From IMG/VR virus record IMGVR_UViG_2537562173_000011, positions 1-28,423 of that record: 28,423 nt of DNA; one strand, given 5' to 3'. The notes beneath the pieces are model-generated. The model ran no database searches and was not told the origin of the DNA. It saw only the letters and a list, made by a program, of their open reading frames with translations. This DNA is from a virus. Its lineage: Duplodnaviria; Heunggongvirae; Uroviricota; Caudoviricetes. A program made the translations under genes and the position numbers. Below, in pieces: positions 2,307-8,788 of the stretch; position 1 is the stretch's first letter, and every line of letters starts with the position of its first letter.

Positions 2307-5252
2307 TTAGTGCTTCCCTTCTATTAAGTCTAACCTAGCTTTTATTCTTTCTATTTCTCTGCGCTGCCATGCTGCCTCGATATAGAATAAGAGATCAGGT
2401 CTGACCCCCCATCTAGATCCTGCTGGCGTTATTTCAACGCGCTCAATGATGTCTTCCATTACCATCACTGGATTATCATCCTCATCAACAATGATGCTCC
2501 CGTCATTATCAGTCAGCGGCATTTCCCTTTGGCCAGTAATGACGTCATCATATACTGCGGGATAATCGTCATAGCAAAGAAAGGCATAGCGGCATGTTGT
2601 GCTTTCTTCTTCCATGAGTCCGTGAGAAATAAGAACATCACGAAGTTGCTGCGCGATTACACCATGATGTATCCTCGCCCCTTCTTCCCCCTTTATAGCG
2701 ACAGCGTTCAGCCATTTATAAGCGATATACCTGACGTCACCCCAGGCATCCAGCAATGTTTCGTCAGGAGAGACCGGCTCTGTCTTTAATGTTCCGTCAC
2801 TGGTAACCACAGGATTGGAGCCAAGATAAACTATCGAGAACCTGTTTCCCGGACCACCAAGAGCATTTACATTATCAAGATAAGGTTTAACATCTCCGTT
2901 CTCAAAAAGATGTTCGAGTGCGTTATATACCGCGCGACGTGGAGTACTGCTTCTGGAACCATGCAACGTTATCATTGCACCATCTGCTGAAGACGTTGTT
3001 TCACCGCCGCTAACGATTAATCTCTGAGCGGTAACATCATCAGACGGTACTTTCTTCGCAATAATGGCGTAATTACCCTCAAGTTTGACTTCCGCGCGAA
3101 CTTGTCCTGATGTACCTGCATGGACAGTCAGTGACTGGACGGCAACATCATCTGTGAAATCAACGGGTACAGGAACCGTCCTCACGCCTGACGTCGACAT
3201 AAAAGTAGGAAGCGTTCTGTTAGGAGTGGCTCCGTAGACAAAATCCCTTGAAACAAATTCTTCCTGTTTAATTTTCACCCTGAAACAATACAAATCAGCC
3301 GGGTGACCATCGTGAACATAAGGATATTTTCTGTTGTTATCCCCTATGCTCCATGGGTTTAGAAAGTCTTCCCCACCGAAAATGTAGTACAGCCAGTTGT
3401 CTTTGATACAAACTGAACCAACACCAACCGCAGAGTTAACTATTCCGCCCTGATAAATCTGATCAGTAACATTAACCCACTCTACATTATCCAGACTCCA
3501 CTCATTGACGTTAACTCTGGTCATAAATGTTCTTGGATAGTTTCCTGCATAACGGTTATCAGGTTCTCCTCCTTCCCACTCACCAAATGCGCGCTCACTG
3601 CCAAAAATAATCAGCTCATCGCCAACTTTGGCAAAAGGAAGGTTTGAGTGATGAACATTATTTGGGAAGCGAAGAGAATTCCATGATGTACCTAAATCAG
3701 AGCTTCTGTGCAATGAACTACCGGGTTGAGTACTTAATGTCCCCCTGGTCGTCAGATACAGAATGCCATCATAATATTTTACACATGGCTCAGATGCATT
3801 CGCCTCATATTCTGCAGGTATGCGTCTGCGAACAAAGCTACCAGGAGAACCGAAAGCATCAGAGAAATAGAGTATCCCAAGCTCGCGTGGACCAATATCA
3901 CCATTATGGTAGCCAACAGCAAAACTGTTATCGCTAATCGTCGCAAAACTGTGAATCTCAGTAACAGGAGTGCTTCCGTCAACAAAAGAAGGAATAGTTC
4001 CAAGACTGGTTTTTCTCCATGGTGACGAGTGAAATGATGTACCAAAACTCCAGTATCTACCCTCGTTATTCTGATCCACATCCTGGGTATTTTGCGTCGT
4101 AACTGTAAAAGTATTTTTATCAATAACAGTAGTCACCGTCATATTCCCGGTAACACCTGTAACACCAGAGTTTGAGAAGTTGACAAAATCACCAGCAAAT
4201 AATCCGTGATCAGTAATGCGAATATAAGCGACTTGCTGATTTGCTGCTTTCGTTATACCACCATAAACGCGAAGGCTGCGACTCATTGGGCGATCCCACA
4301 ACTCTGCAACCTGCAGTTTATTTCCGCTCACGGTCCGCGTCTCAATTACAGCAAAAAGGCGATTTCTGACAACCCCCATACTCATGCAGTGATAGTTAAC
4401 TGTGGGATAGTTTTCATGTAAATCTGTAAGCCATTCCGGCGTTGTCCAGGTCTTCCCGTCATCTCCTGAGCGAACCCATGCAACATGGAGGTTATTTACA
4501 CCATGGCGGTCCCCAGCCATAAAAGGCGCATAGATGACATTGTCATATACAAACGTTTTATCCTGCGTCCAGGCGTTGTACCACGGTGTATCTGTAATTT
4601 TAAATAACTCTCCCTGGATAAAATCTTCAGAAACATAAAAAAGAGGCTGACCCGGTATTCTCTCAAATAAAAAACGAGCATTTTTAAATCGACTGACATC
4701 TGGAAGAGTTGATACTTTAAAAGTAAGCCCTCGCCCATCTATCTTTTCACCACCTGTTGCAACAGAAAGTAATTCTGATAGAGCTGATGTATCATCATGA
4801 ACACCATCACCAATAGCCCCCCAACCTCTTACATCATAACTGTCTCTCCATCTTGCTATCTGAAGTTTTGGGTATTTATTCGCTCCATCTGGGTCTTCTA
4901 ATTGCTGCCGTAGTTGATCAGGATCATACTTCAGCACATTCTGGAAATAGAACTGCTGTACGCCATACGCATCGTACACAGCCATAGAATGGCCTTGCAC
5001 AGTTACGAACTTGGCAATCCGTCCGTTATATACAGGGTAACCAGCAGCGTTAATGATGATTGGTTGCGAAACAGGAACGTGAGAGCCGTCTTCGTTCTCT
5101 ACATAAACCTGAATCCGGTTTTCAGGATTTACCGGGTCAGTGTCAATTTTACCGATATAAATTTTGCCATTGGCTACGGCTTTAAAAGAACGCGCCATAG
5201 TGAAGAGTTGCGAAGGCATCGATACAATCACATTGGCTGTAATGTCTGTCAT
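2307..5252 (-). CDS. Tailspike with P22 gp9-like head-binding N-terminus fused to an endo-N-acetylneuraminidase (endosialidase)
   Basis: 981 aa. N-terminus MTDITANV...[13 protein letters not shown]...VLKYDPDQ is near-identical in pattern to the P22 tailspike head-binding domain; the remainder is consistent with K1-phage endosialidase tailspikes. Position next to ant matches P22 gene 9. Confidence 0.85.
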
Positions 5253-5352: not shown

Positions 5353-6255
5353 TCAGTAATTATGTACTGAAGGAGGTAATTCTTTATTCTTAAGTCTCAT
5401 CCATGCGGAAAGATTCGTTGGTCCGTCTGGCTCATTGATATCAACATCTCGTGTGTGATTGATTAAAACGTCTCTCGCCATATCGATAATACGGGAGAAC
5501 TCATAACCGCAGTCATGACATCTGCCGGAATAGTTCGATTGAATTTGTTTTAGCGCCGGATACAGTTCGCGGAATAATGCCTGTGAGCGGTTGGCATAAT
5601 CCCATAGCCATACAAGGCTGTTTGCTTCTTTTGCAGAAAGCTCGTTGGTTTTCTTCTCTTGTTTGCCGATGAACTCACCTTCAAGCACTACCCTGTGGAT
5701 GTACTCTACTGCTTGTGGTATCTGAGATGCATCAAGCTCTTCAATACTTTCCACATTGAAACGCTGATGAATCATTGCATAAGCTTCTGGGTACATTAGA
5801 TGCTTTTTGCTGACTAGCATATTTACAGCATCACGAAGCGGAGTCCTGTCATCAACAGATGTTTTCTTCCGTGCATTTGCTGCCTCTCCCTTTGTCCAGT
5901 AGTCATGCAGCACAGTAAAGCATTCTTCCTGGTACTGAATCAGTTTATCGCGGATGTCAGCACGAACTTTCTCAGGGTTGATGCTGAACAGCCATCCATT
6001 TAACTTCTTCAAAGGAAGGCAGAGTAGCTTACGAAGCTTACCATCAGCGGCAACCATGTTCATATGAACACAGTTGAATTTGCTAATCTGCTTCATGAGT
6101 TTTGTTTGCTGCGTTGACCAGCTCATTCCGAGGTTTTCAACGATTGGCTTCATCGCAACATATGCAACTCCGGCAGCCATGGCGGTGATAATTTGCTGAC
6201 CGTTGAATGGCACGTAAGAGGTGTTCACTGCTTCTAAAATTGCTATACTATTCAT
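5353..6255 (-). CDS. ant: Antirepressor Ant (immI)
   Basis: Position immediately upstream of the tailspike and downstream of arc, as in P22 immI. I chose ATG 6255 ([10 protein letters not shown]...); the track's longer ORF begins at a GTG at 6321 just after an in-frame stop. Confidence 0.75.
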
Positions 6256-6487
6256 GTTGGTTTTTCTCCACGGATTTACCGACAACCGAAGCCCTGACTG
6301 TTCCAGCAGTTGGGGCTTCACTGTTTTGATTTCTTTGCCGCATCAAGCATCACTTCTGAAAACGTGCGCTTGCCACTGAATACTCTTTCTCTTCTCAATT
6401 TTTCGTTCGTGCCAAATGATTCGCCATGAACAAAATTTGGTCTTAAAATGGTAATCGCAATCTCTTTGACTACTGCATCCAAGCGAA

Positions 6488-6640
6488 TCACACCGTTACC
6501 CCCTCTCTCTTCAGGCTGTCTATCAGGCGCTTGATAACCTCTGAGTTAAACGACCTGCACTCTTCCTTTGCCCTGCTACCGATAGCATCCTTTAACGACT
6601 GCGGCATCCTTACCAAAATCTTACTTATTTCTTTCTCCAT
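6488..6640 (-). CDS. arc: Arc-like ribbon-helix-helix repressor
   Basis: 51 aa from ATG 6640 with a GGAGGG Shine-Dalgarno. Sequence ...RMPQSLKDAIGSRAKEECRSFNSEVIKRLIDSL resembles P22 Arc (GRSVNSEI motif region). Divergent from mnt. Confidence 0.7.
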   Translation of the reverse strand: MEKEISKILVRMPQSLKDAIGSRAKEECRSFNSEVIKRLIDSLKREGVTV

Positions 6641-6754
6641 GTTACCCTCCACGCAAACAACTCTTTTCGAATACAAAAGATAGCAAAGTGAGTATATCTA
6701 GTCAAAATTTTTTTGCATACACTTTGCTATCAAATTGAATACCAAAGGTGTTAT
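6641..6754. promoter_or_regulatory. Divergent immI promoter/operator region between arc and mnt
   Basis: 114-bp AT-rich spacer between divergent RHH repressor genes; contains 12-bp inverted repeats gatagcaaagtg (6679-6690) and cactttgctatc (6720-6731). Confidence 0.4.
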
Positions 6755-7003
6755 ATGGCAAAGGGTGTGTCAATTTCTCCAACTACGGTAAGAATCCCTG
6801 AATCTTTACGCGAGGCTCTTGCTGTCAGAGCATCAAAAAATGGTCGCTCTGTTAACTCCGAGATCGTCATGATTTTGCAAGCCGCGATTGATGAAGATAG
6901 GTCGCCAAAGTCAGTTGAGTCATTTGCTCAGCAAGAAGCTGATAAATTCAAAGAGGCGCTACTTGAGACGCTAAAGACCATGTATGCTAAGGATGAAAAA
7001 TAA
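6755..7003 (+). CDS. mnt: Mnt-like ribbon-helix-helix maintenance repressor
   Basis: 82 aa from ATG 6755 (SD AAGGTG). ...RIPESLREALAVRASKNGRSVNSEIVMILQAA... resembles P22 Mnt; length and divergent orientation relative to arc match P22. Confidence 0.75.
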   Translation: MAKGVSISPTTVRIPESLREALAVRASKNGRSVNSEIVMILQAAIDEDRSPKSVESFAQQEADKFKEALLETLKTMYAKDEK

Positions 7004-7539
7004 TGCTGCACACAATTCATTTCTTATGCCCTGTTAACACTGCCACTGTTGGGCAACTTCAGAACCACTGTCTCACCGCATTATCTCAAGGCGCAACTGA
7101 ATTAAATATCCATATATCAAGTCAGGGAGGGGAAACTGCTGCTGGCTTTACTGCGTATAACTTTCTTAAGTCACTCCCTGTTACCGTTAGAACTCACAAC
7201 ATAAGCAATGTTGAATCCATAGCTAATATCGTTTTCCTGGCTGGCTCAGAACGTTTCGCAAACCCATTATCAAGATTCCTGTTACATCCTCTATTATGGT
7301 GCTTTGCCTCCCCAGCCGCCGACCATGCCAGATTGAGAGAGTACGGGAAATGCCTCGATAACGATCTTGATCGCTTCGTTGAGACGTTCAATATCGACAT
7401 CGGAACCCATATTAGGTGGGCATCCCTGATAGCAGACTCGACCATTTTGGATGCTAACAAGGCTCTTGAGCATGGCATAATTAATTCCATAAAAACTGCA
7501 AGGCTGGCATCCAATCAGGCAAACTGGTGGGTTGTTTGA
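7003..7539 (+). CDS. ClpP-fold (S14-like) serine protease homolog, 178 aa, translationally coupled to mnt
   Basis: Start ATG overlaps the mnt stop (TAATG). HISSQGGETAAGFTAYNFL...ISNVESIANIVFLAGSERF...SRFLLHPLL aligns by eye to the ClpP core (INSPGGVITAG...GQAASMGAFLLTAG...RVMIHQP), with Ser, His and Asp at the catalytic-triad positions. Confidence 0.6.
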   Translation: MLHTIHFLCPVNTATVGQLQNHCLTALSQGATELNIHISSQGGETAAGFTAYNFLKSLPVTVRTHNISNVESIANIVFLAGSERFANPLSRFLLHPLLWCFASPAADHARLREYGKCLDNDLDRFVETFNIDIGTHIRWASLIADSTILDANKALEHGIINSIKTARLASNQANWWVV

Positions 7540-7566
7540 TGGGTAAATCATGATTACTCCTTATAA

Positions 7567-7589
7567 AAAACCCACCTGACGGTGGGTTT
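7567..7589. terminator. Bidirectional rho-independent terminator between convergent hotspot genes
   Basis: aaaaaa-cccacc-tgac-ggtggg-ttt hairpin flanked by A and T runs, between the stop at 7539 (+) and the stop at 7588 (-). Confidence 0.5.
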
Positions 7590-8004
7590 AGTCAAACATA
7601 GTGTTTCTAAAGTCTCTCGCATACCCTGCTAACACTCTCATTCTATTATGATTGTTAGCAGACATGTGAGCTACAGGATGAAAAAGAGCAATCAATGAAT
7701 GCCTGTTCTCATCAAAAAGATTTTGTGCATAAACGAGAGCGGTATTGGATGTTTTATGCCACTGCAACTTTTGCGGTGTGCTGATATCTGTGCCATTTTT
7801 TATTGGCTCAAATTTATTTTCACCAATTGCTAAATGAAGGTGCATAAGGCCTGCATCTTCAATATCAGGAGGTCGATGATAAGAGGTGTCTCTGCCAAAA
7901 TAGCTGGGCAACGTTCCCGTAGACTTGTAGATGATTTTATCATCTACAAGTGTTTGTTTTAAATCAGGAAACTCAACAAAAACCGGGGAGAAAAAAATAG
8001 TCAA
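7588..8004 (-). CDS. Hypothetical protein (138 aa if the TTG start is used), second gene of a two-gene hotspot operon
   Basis: Open frame with AGGA 5 nt upstream of a TTG at 8004; first in-frame ATG would give about 85 aa. No family recognised. AT-rich. Confidence 0.4.
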   Translation of the reverse strand: MTIFFSPVFVEFPDLKQTLVDDKIIYKSTGTLPSYFGRDTSYHRPPDIEDAGLMHLHLAIGENKFEPIKNGTDISTPQKLQWHKTSNTALVYAQNLFDENRHSLIALFHPVAHMSANNHNRMRVLAGYARDFRNTMFD

Positions 8005-8046
8005 AACTATCCTGATTATATTCCACGGTTACTTGCATGTTTTACC

Positions 8047-8613
8047 TCAGTGGAAGTTACCAGAGTGAAACACACGAGTCCCGTGCTCAGCAAGCGCACG
8101 CAAACCAGCCATATCTACGGAACTATCAAAAACAACCGGAACACATGAGCGTTGTTTAATAAGACTATTCAGGTTGGTTACGGCAGATCTGGCATCAGCA
8201 ACAACGATATAGATATCTCTTGCGATCTCTTTAAAATCAGCAGAAGCTTCTTTGAATACCGATTTCATTGCCCCTTCAAGTCCTCTCAATTGATGCTCTA
8301 TCAATCGAGACTTTTCTGGTTCAATGATAGACAACACATTGTCTACATTCTCATCGGTAGCGTTTGCAAGAACACGATAAGCGTATTTCAGCATTCGAGA
8401 CAATTCTTTAATCGAAGACACCGCCTCATGAAGCTCATCATTAGCCCGTTCACTGCTGAATGAGGATTGATGGTAAGCGTGCTGAACGTTATCAGTAACA
8501 ACCACCTCACAACTGAACGCAGAAGCTTGCTGTAATAGCAAACCTATTGCGACTCCAGCTTTGGCAGCGTTCAAGCTAAACATTTCATCAATCCCATTAG
8601 TCTCATTGCTCAT
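8047..8613 (-). CDS. Hypothetical protein (188 aa), first gene of a two-gene hotspot operon
   Basis: ATG at 8613 preceded by a perfect AAGGAGG Shine-Dalgarno; predicted largely helical; no family recognised. Confidence 0.5.
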   Translation of the reverse strand: MSNETNGIDEMFSLNAAKAGVAIGLLLQQASAFSCEVVVTDNVQHAYHQSSFSSERANDELHEAVSSIKELSRMLKYAYRVLANATDENVDNVLSIIEPEKSRLIEHQLRGLEGAMKSVFKEASADFKEIARDIYIVVADARSAVTNLNSLIKQRSCVPVVFDSSVDMAGLRALAEHGTRVFHSGNFH

Positions 8614-8788
8614 ACAAACCTCCTTCTTATCGGAGATTATCAATAGCTATGCATCCATTGAATACACGCTATGCGCAATAAGTTTACGTCACGTGATATC
8701 ATTATGCAACCACCGTTCTATCACCGACTAACTTTACTCCCACTCCTATACATCATCTGGTATCCTGCGCAAAACTAAGGAGGTTGGT

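Follow-up and report, generated by a model that had tools for sequence, protein, structure and literature searches.

The closest characterized relative of the protein considered here is ClpP1 of Pseudomonas plecoglossicida (PpClpP1), whose structure has been determined by electron cryo-microscopy (PDB 9UXT; PLoS Pathog 2026, PMC12900304). Here we have analyzed a 28,423-nucleotide stretch of viral DNA (positions 1 to 28,423 of IMG/VR record IMGVR_UViG_2537562173_000011, called the window below), which carries a gene for a short ClpP-type peptidase subunit of 178 amino acids at positions 7003..7539 on the + strand. PpClpP1 is an N-terminally truncated protein of 183 amino acids that forms a homo-14-mer with a pore of 42.7 Å, and its peptidase activity is about 13-fold below that of the housekeeping ClpP2 (PMC12900304). 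The S73A and H96A mutations abolish this activity, while mutants of the Pro at the third catalytic position retain about 60% of it (PMC12900304). ClpX is not pulled down by PpClpP1; together with the canonical ClpP2 it forms a stable 7+7 complex that supports ClpX-dependent degradation and is more active than either homo-complex, and deletion of PpClpP1 impairs growth and motility (PMC12900304). Since this homologue was solved and assayed in 2026, the protein family itself is not new (PMC12900304); the word 'prophage' is absent from the paper. The reading that we favour overall for the gene in the window is that it encodes a prophage-expressed accessory ClpP subunit, probably a partner of the host ClpP, and we put the probability of this reading at roughly 55%.

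The open reading frame (ORF) at 7003-7539 is a real gene under strong purifying selection, with a ratio of nonsynonymous to synonymous substitution rates (dN/dS) of about 0.08 against alleles at 69-80% identity. Two antisense ORFs lie inside the gene on the minus strand (7194-7514 and 7294-7551), and both the homology and the low dN/dS belong to the + frame. The original prediction, which was made from the sequence alone, had described this 178-amino-acid ORF and had assigned its product to the ClpP fold, and on both points it was correct. The Pfam CLP_protease family (PF00574) matches residues 24-165 with 44.4 bits, against a gathering cut-off of 20.2 (E=2.2e-11), so the profile search did not end in a finding of no homology, and phmmer aligns residues 3-175 to PDB 9uxt_A with an expected value of 1.6e-35. 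An AlphaFold (AF2) single-chain model, built on 36 family members, has a mean predicted local distance difference test score (pLDDT) of 89.6. When this predicted model was superposed on known structures by Foldseek, it gave a template modelling (TM) score of 0.92 to 9uxt_A and of about 0.76-0.80 to the ClpPs of E. coli, Listeria, Thermus and M. tuberculosis (about 0.76-0.77 for E. coli). The TIGR00493 clpP equivalog scores only 19.2 bits, below its cut-off of 308.6. The protein is a member of a large family of short ClpPs of the PpClpP1 type, for which we count 524 representatives at 50% clustering with E<=1e-10, many of them 180-190 amino acids long.

The likeness to PpClpP1 goes beyond these scores. 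The two proteins are similar in length, begin at the same point without axial loop or helix A, have a Ser-His pair with a non-acidic residue in the third position, and share, close to their C-termini, a Trp together with a Val or Ile. They differ in the third position, where Pseudomonas has Pro and the query Ser (Ala or Ser in its enteric relatives), and their identity is only about 40-50%; the Pseudomonas gene is chromosomal, whereas the query gene is phage-borne and lies in the immI region of a prophage. Pseudomonas homologues about 67-88% identical to PpClpP1 occupy a conserved chromosomal neighbourhood that contains genes for a KGG stress protein and a DUF6555 protein and no phage genes, and on this ground we rejected the idea that PpClpP1 is itself prophage-borne. 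The Pseudomonas branch, including the close relatives of PpClpP1, is represented by loci L092-L097 (around 6000-8300), with the KGG-repeat stress-protein and DUF6555 genes on the flanks; this neighbourhood hints at a stress-related role for the chromosomal Pseudomonas form.

Catalytic residues were examined in an alignment of the query with 64 enteric and 119 Pseudomonas homologues (183 family members) and with E. coli ClpP, whose Ser, His and Asp fall at the mature positions that are expected for them (97, 122 and 171). Ser72 (NVESIAN; codon 7216-7218) is aligned to E. coli Ser97 and His95 (RFLLHPL; codon 7285-7287) to His122, and both are invariant in 183/183 family members, as are the glycines of the oxyanion hole, G42-G43. 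Because of this invariance, catalysis appears to be under selection. The column of E. coli Asp171 (RDRF) is occupied in the query by Ser146 (codon 7438-7440), and it holds Asp in 0/64 enteric and 0/119 Pseudomonas homologues. The enteric members have Ala (36), Ser (21), Gly (4), Thr (2) or Met (1) in this column and the Pseudomonas members Pro (107), Ser (6), Ala (5) or Thr (1). The HMMER alignment to 9UXT places Ser146 on the proline of 'AYPRIL', which is the third 'triad' position by structural superposition (PMC12900304). The Pro151 of that paper is residue 150 by count of the deposited 9UXT chain, while Ser73 and His96 agree (PMC12900304). The original prediction of an intact catalytic triad therefore stands for Ser and His, both of which it had located in the motifs given above, and falls for Asp: its candidate, Asp145 (IADST; codon 7435-7437), is one residue early, lies on Arg170 of E. 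coli ClpP, and is variable, with Asp at this position in 7/64 enteric and 6/119 Pseudomonas homologues. To judge from the alignment, the short ClpP family has a dyad of Ser and His, and its third position is filled by Pro or by a small residue that is not acidic.

Met1 of the query is aligned to about residue 23-24 of mature E. coli ClpP, so that the axial loop and helix A are missing; the lack of the axial-loop segment had also been recognized at the outset. The residues of the pocket that receives the IGF/LGF loops of ClpX and ClpA are known from the structural literature on acyldepsipeptide (ADEP)-ClpP complexes. In the query the positions of E. coli Y60, Y62, F82, I90, M92, F112 and L114 are taken by N35, H37, S57, H65, I67, F85 and N87, and five of these seven residues (N35, H37, S57, H65 and N87) are polar. 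Direct docking of ClpX or ClpA on the 178-amino-acid protein is thus unlikely, to judge from the residues of the pocket and from the failure of the solved homologue to pull down ClpX (PMC12900304). The family also has a conserved C-terminal tail that is not found in canonical ClpP: N-W-W-V in the enteric members (7522-7536 in the query, residues 174-178) and usually x-W-S/C-V/I-H in Pseudomonas. The AF2 model predicts this tail to be an extra beta-strand (residues 173-177), which might take the place of the absent N-terminal segment or obstruct the pocket for the ATPase.

The polar pocket can be read in another way, namely that the protein assembles into a 14-mer of its own, never mixes with host ClpP, and acts as a gate-less peptidase on diffusing peptides or unfolded proteins; attack on incoming phage proteins is a possible use for such an enzyme. 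In agreement with this, members of the family are always encoded singly, without a conserved partner gene, and PpClpP1 does form homo-14-mers with a wide pore and a measurable peptidase activity alone (PMC12900304). That lone activity is weak relative to canonical ClpP, however, and it is pairing that activates the protein (PMC12900304). It also speaks against this reading that a search of PADLOC-DB v2 matched no defence family at E values up to 1, on the basis of which a known defence system was rejected. We regard independent action of this kind as rather unlikely and retain partnership with host ClpP as the preferred reading.

Relative to canonical ClpP (E. coli, MEROPS S14), the protein retains the fold and the aligned Ser, His and oxyanion Gly-Gly; it differs by the loss of the Asp171 equivalent and of about 23 N-terminal mature residues, by its polar pocket and by the added C-terminal WWV strand. 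It is not a canonical ClpP, failing as it does at the Asp, the N-terminus, the pocket and the TIGR00493 score. The second ClpP paralogues of other bacteria (P. aeruginosa ClpP2, Listeria ClpP1 and Mycobacterium ClpP1P2) resemble it in being an extra ring for which a partner ring provides ATPase docking or activation, and Listeria ClpP1 also departs from Ser-His-Asp, having Asn. These paralogues are, in contrast, chromosomal, have full or nearly full N-termini and an Asp or Asn in the third position, and in sequence they are no closer to the query than is ordinary ClpP; none is reported to be phage-borne. One of them, P. aeruginosa ClpP2, is reported to modulate ClpXP assembly (PMC13056064). 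This finding lends some weight to a further reading, in which the phage protein is a ClpR-type modulator or poison of host ClpP that lowers or redirects ClpXP/ClpAP activity, for example to shield a phage protein from degradation, its own catalysis being minor. That Asp, N-terminal gate and ClpX pocket are all lacking would suit such a role, as would the low intrinsic activity of PpClpP1 (PMC12900304). It is harder to reconcile with the invariance of Ser72, His95 and the oxyanion glycines in 183 sequences, or with the PpClpP1P2 complex being more active, not less, than either homo-complex (PMC12900304), and we consider a mainly inhibitory or modulating role improbable. In biochemical terms the protein is very probably an active accessory subunit of the Ser-His type within the ClpP family, expressed from the prophage.

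Phages are known to encode ClpP-related prohead proteases (NF045542, PHROG 94), to which the query has distant ClpP-fold homology, and in the GenBank record of phage phiv205-1 the gene is auto-annotated as a head maturation protease. This annotation is backed by the match to PHROG 94 'head maturation protease' (E=7e-21) and by a score of 49.3 bits to NCBIfam Clp_rel_HeadMat (NF045542), but the latter is below the cut-off of 120. Unlike the query, the prohead proteases are longer and often form a fusion with scaffold, and their genes belong to the late operon, where they are placed between portal and capsid. The short ClpP-type gene is outside the head and late genes and on the strand opposite to them, and phages of the P22 type assemble their heads without a protease. 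Moreover, a Leclercia prophage (L098/L099) has both kinds of gene: a ClpP-type prohead protease of 284 amino acids between portal and capsid (43-897, - strand), and, in the interval between the lysis genes and terminase, a short ClpP of 179 amino acids (6001-6540, + strand) that is 75% identical to the query. Since a prophage with a true prohead protease carries the short gene as well, a head-maturation role is ruled out for practical purposes, and on this coexistence and the sub-threshold NCBIfam score we rejected the prohead protease assignment, to which we would give almost no credence. The original prediction had already placed the gene outside the morphogenesis module and judged a part in virion maturation unlikely, a view that position, strand and the Leclercia prophage all uphold. 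For the 178-amino-acid product both routine labels are wrong, that of a host 'ATP-dependent Clp protease proteolytic subunit' as well as that of a 'head maturation protease'.

The genetic context of the gene bears on when it is expressed. It lies directly downstream of a gene for a Mnt-like ribbon-helix-helix (RHH) repressor of 82 amino acids (6755..7003, + strand; Pfam Arc domain, E=9.5e-11), as had first been noted, and the stop codon of the latter (TAA, 7001-7003) shares one base with the ATG of the ClpP-like gene (7003-7005), the overlap TAATG (7001-7005) being present in the sequence just as predicted. A predicted ribosome-binding motif, AGGA (6990..6993, + strand), is located within the 3' end of the mnt-like gene, 9 nucleotides 5' of the ClpP-like ATG. 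Along its entire length the Mnt-like protein shares 43% identity with a P22-Mnt-type allele from a related prophage (L024). Divergent from this pair is a gene for an arc-like repressor (6488..6640, - strand; Pfam Arc, E=1e-11, and RefSeq annotation of an identical region), followed by the antirepressor gene ant (5353..6255, - strand; Pfam P22_AR_N and P22_AR_C, RefSeq 'phage antirepressor Ant'). Between them a full-length sar antisense RNA is found on the + strand at 6256..6322 (Rfam RF00262, 83.9 bits against a gathering cut-off of 43, E=2.5e-17); in the immI region of P22, sar is the antisense regulator of ant. As divergent arc, ant and the sar RNA are all present, the site is a genuine P22-type immI region. 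In the interval from arc to ant there is also a 57-amino-acid ORF (6318-6491, - strand), hypothetical in RefSeq and without a Pfam match, whose 3' end extends 5 nucleotides into the sar region.

The divergent arc/mnt intergenic region contains a perfect 12-bp inverted repeat, GATAGCAAAGTG ... CACTTTGCTATC, with a spacing of 29 nucleotides (6679..6731), which is a candidate operator and promoter region for a transcript of mnt and the ClpP-like gene. In the opposite (ant) direction the promoter scan gave a promoter-like site at 6705-6677. On the other side of the gene, between the convergent ClpP-like and YafO-like genes, there is a GC-rich hairpin, AAACCCACC-TGAC-GGTGGGTTT (7568..7589; -14.5 kcal/mol), which was found by direct folding and was not picked up by the terminator scan. 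The same 42 bp that make up the hairpin region carry a 'terminator' annotation in Salmonella phage Emek, and the hairpin is probably a two-way terminator that forms the right edge of a mobile cassette. In P22 lysogens, Mnt maintains the repression of ant. Because the ClpP-like gene is directly 3' of mnt, with overlapping stop and start codons and the hairpin after it, its expression in the lysogen together with Mnt is plausible, and to this extent the original prediction of expression in the lysogen is supported.

The window allele is present in 128 of 5,426 complete E. coli genomes (about 2.4%), always on the chromosome; among the matches listed, the 'Arc family' gene is also covered by the match in 28 of 30 genomes. 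Carriers include K1, avian pathogenic (APEC) and extraintestinal pathogenic (ExPEC) E. coli strains with CUS-3-like prophages. Only 6 of 50,697 sequenced phage isolates have this allele, and members of the family occur on more than 100 IMG/VR viral contigs. Across about 40 loci with the allele at >=94% identity, it is directly 3' of a Mnt-like gene; this holds for every intact copy examined, two copies cut at the end of a locus and two interrupted ones having been set aside. The mnt alleles upstream are 36-100% identical to the window Mnt-like protein, and ant is also present at most of these loci. By blastn over 40 loci, the gene belongs to a mosaic cassette of 600-680 bp (6911..7589, + strand) that is 97-99% identical in prophages with differing mnt alleles and is sharply bounded. 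Nucleotide similarity starts 20-90 nucleotides 5' of the mnt stop, or further left, so that the left edge of the cassette is variable (6911, 6922, 6963 or 6983), and in most loci similarity to other prophages stops at 7561 or at 7586-7589. The left edge, inside the 3' end of mnt, looks like a recombination joint rather than the product of co-evolution. In some prophages (L024, 4209-5001, + strand, and also L022, 2059-2567) two or three differing tandem genes for Mnt-like RHH proteins are found directly 5' of the ClpP-like gene, one of which is very similar to P22 Mnt.

Such a constant association raises the possibility that the protein is a protease of the immI switch, which might, for instance, clear stray Ant or Arc and so stabilize lysogeny. 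Every intact copy of the E. coli allele that we examined is directly 3' of mnt, most loci have ant, and in the lambda-like siphophage PhiR12_1 both the ClpP-like gene and the mnt-like gene that accompanies it, located between tail genes L and K, again adjoin an antirepressor gene. Outside the E. coli allele the association breaks down. The homologues that are 51-75% identical occur singly, at unrelated sites, and mnt, arc and ant are absent from their surroundings; the members from Pseudomonas are chromosomal, and the apparent recombination joint in mnt likewise tells against a function tied to the switch, which we therefore hold to be highly improbable. Linkage to mnt is a special trait of the E. 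coli allele and does not extend to the family as a whole. An obligate two-gene module of a Mnt-type RHH protein and a ClpP, akin to a toxin-antitoxin or defence system, was rejected as well, since mnt is joined only to the E. coli allele and one relative 80% identical to it; more distant homologues stand alone, without mnt. A link with the YafO-like toxin was rejected too: a YafO-like neighbour is present in 1 of 91 loci (L004, the near-identical ATCC 11775 region), and the genes found downstream differ between loci.

All neighbours of the stand-alone homologues at 51-75% identity are encoded on the other strand, and these homologues are found in differing places. In Klebsiella and Leclercia prophages the gene is between the lysis cassette and terminase, in Proteus prophages it adjoins the N gene, and in a Chromobacterium myovirus-type prophage it is between the lysis and tail-fibre genes. 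In the census of loci nearly all downstream neighbours are convergent with the gene; upstream, the neighbours of the stand-alone forms are mostly divergent from it. Because they are oriented against their neighbours, we infer that the stand-alone homologues have a promoter of their own. The gene is a discrete insert, occupies an opposite-strand or prophage slot, has its own terminator hairpin, and is found at differing sites in differing phages, which are the features of a 'moron'. Its context thus shows the short ClpP-type gene to be an accessory gene of prophages and not an enzyme of virion maturation, and its spread in this capacity through the Enterobacterales appears to be new and undescribed. 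Same-strand ORFs are found 5' of some distant homologues (182, 162 and 195 amino acids), none with a Pfam match. The 182-amino-acid ORF occurs in loci of the Klebsiella type (L073-L079, about 3760-4308, + strand), 78 nucleotides 5' of the short ClpP gene on the same strand, and the two may constitute a two-gene accessory unit.

If the protein is a prophage-expressed accessory subunit that pairs with host ClpP, the 178-amino-acid product would be made in the lysogen along with Mnt and, by analogy with PpClpP1, would form ClpP-like heptameric rings. A phage ring would stack on one ring of host ClpP, which would provide the docking surface for ClpX or ClpA, and the phage ring itself would contribute a second proteolytic half-chamber that has no gate. 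The outcome would be a changed Clp-dependent protein turnover in the lysogen, with host stress fitness, stable lysogeny or the exclusion of other phages as possible payoffs. Several observations weigh against this. Assembly with host ClpP is extrapolated from a homologue only about 40-50% identical, in a Pseudomonas chromosomal setting (KGG, DUF6555), and by alignment the 178-amino-acid protein lacks the 'sensor' pair of canonical ring-ring contacts (E. coli Arg170/Asp171). The scan for Pmnt gave no convincing sigma-70 match in the mnt direction on the + strand, the empty PADLOC search lends no support to a defence role, and the searchable literature is silent on a phage or prophage role for such a ClpP. 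Action through a mixed complex with host ClpP, which is argued here by analogy, is accordingly proposed as a tentative step, somewhat short of even odds.

The rest of the window is consistent with a prophage of the P22 type. RefSeq annotation of an identical E. coli region includes a P22-family coat protein, portal, gp4, gp10 and ejection proteins, and the prophage is both P22-like and CUS-3-like, with an endosialidase tailspike that has a P22 head-binding domain and with a hexapeptide acyltransferase. The acyltransferase gene (1398-2153, - strand) adjoins the genes for the tailspike (2307-5252) and integrase (1-1158), and presumably its product resembles the phase-variable NeuO O-acetyltransferase of K1 prophage CUS-3. 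At its 5' end there are 15 tandem copies of a 7-nucleotide repeat (2044-2148; GAGTCTT on the + strand, AAGACTC on the coding strand), which preserve the acyltransferase reading frame. Beyond the hairpin lie a homologue of the YafO toxin family (7588-8004, - strand; Pfam YafO_toxin, E=4e-21; PHROG 1651) and, preceding it, a gene for a 198-amino-acid protein (8047-8643, - strand; PHROG 8416, no Pfam match). These two might act as a pair, in a toxin-antitoxin or defence system; neither showed a known antitoxin domain, and PADLOC gave only a weak ZorA-like match (E=0.004). Their position, with the ClpP-like gene on one side and the gene for a gp16-like ejection protein on the other, is that of sieA in P22. 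P22 sieA is expressed from the prophage, which fits the expression in the lysogen proposed above for the ClpP-like gene, and the paper on P22 SieA makes no mention of the ClpP-like gene (PMC10883804).

For annotation, these results correct a routine error, as the gene encodes neither a host Clp proteolytic subunit nor a head maturation protease. For the biology of lysogens, their meaning depends on whether the phage subunit pairs with host ClpP. If it does, prophages would have a compact, one-gene means of retuning a central bacterial protease. ClpXP and ClpAP control RpoS, components of the SOS response, antitoxins and several phage proteins, and for this reason such pairing would bear on lysogen stability, stress tolerance and competition between phages. 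A broader and more doubtful proposal is that temperate phages of the Enterobacterales, among them P22-like, lambda-like, HK97-like and myovirus-like ones, spread a gate-less, ClpX-blind ClpP subunit as a form of lysogenic conversion, which would stack on host ClpP and reprogram ClpXP/ClpAP. Were this true, the result could be stabilized lysogeny, altered regulation of stress responses of the RpoS type, or destruction of the proteins of superinfecting phages, and the prophage would be hijacking the proteolytic core of its host rather than adding a separate effector.

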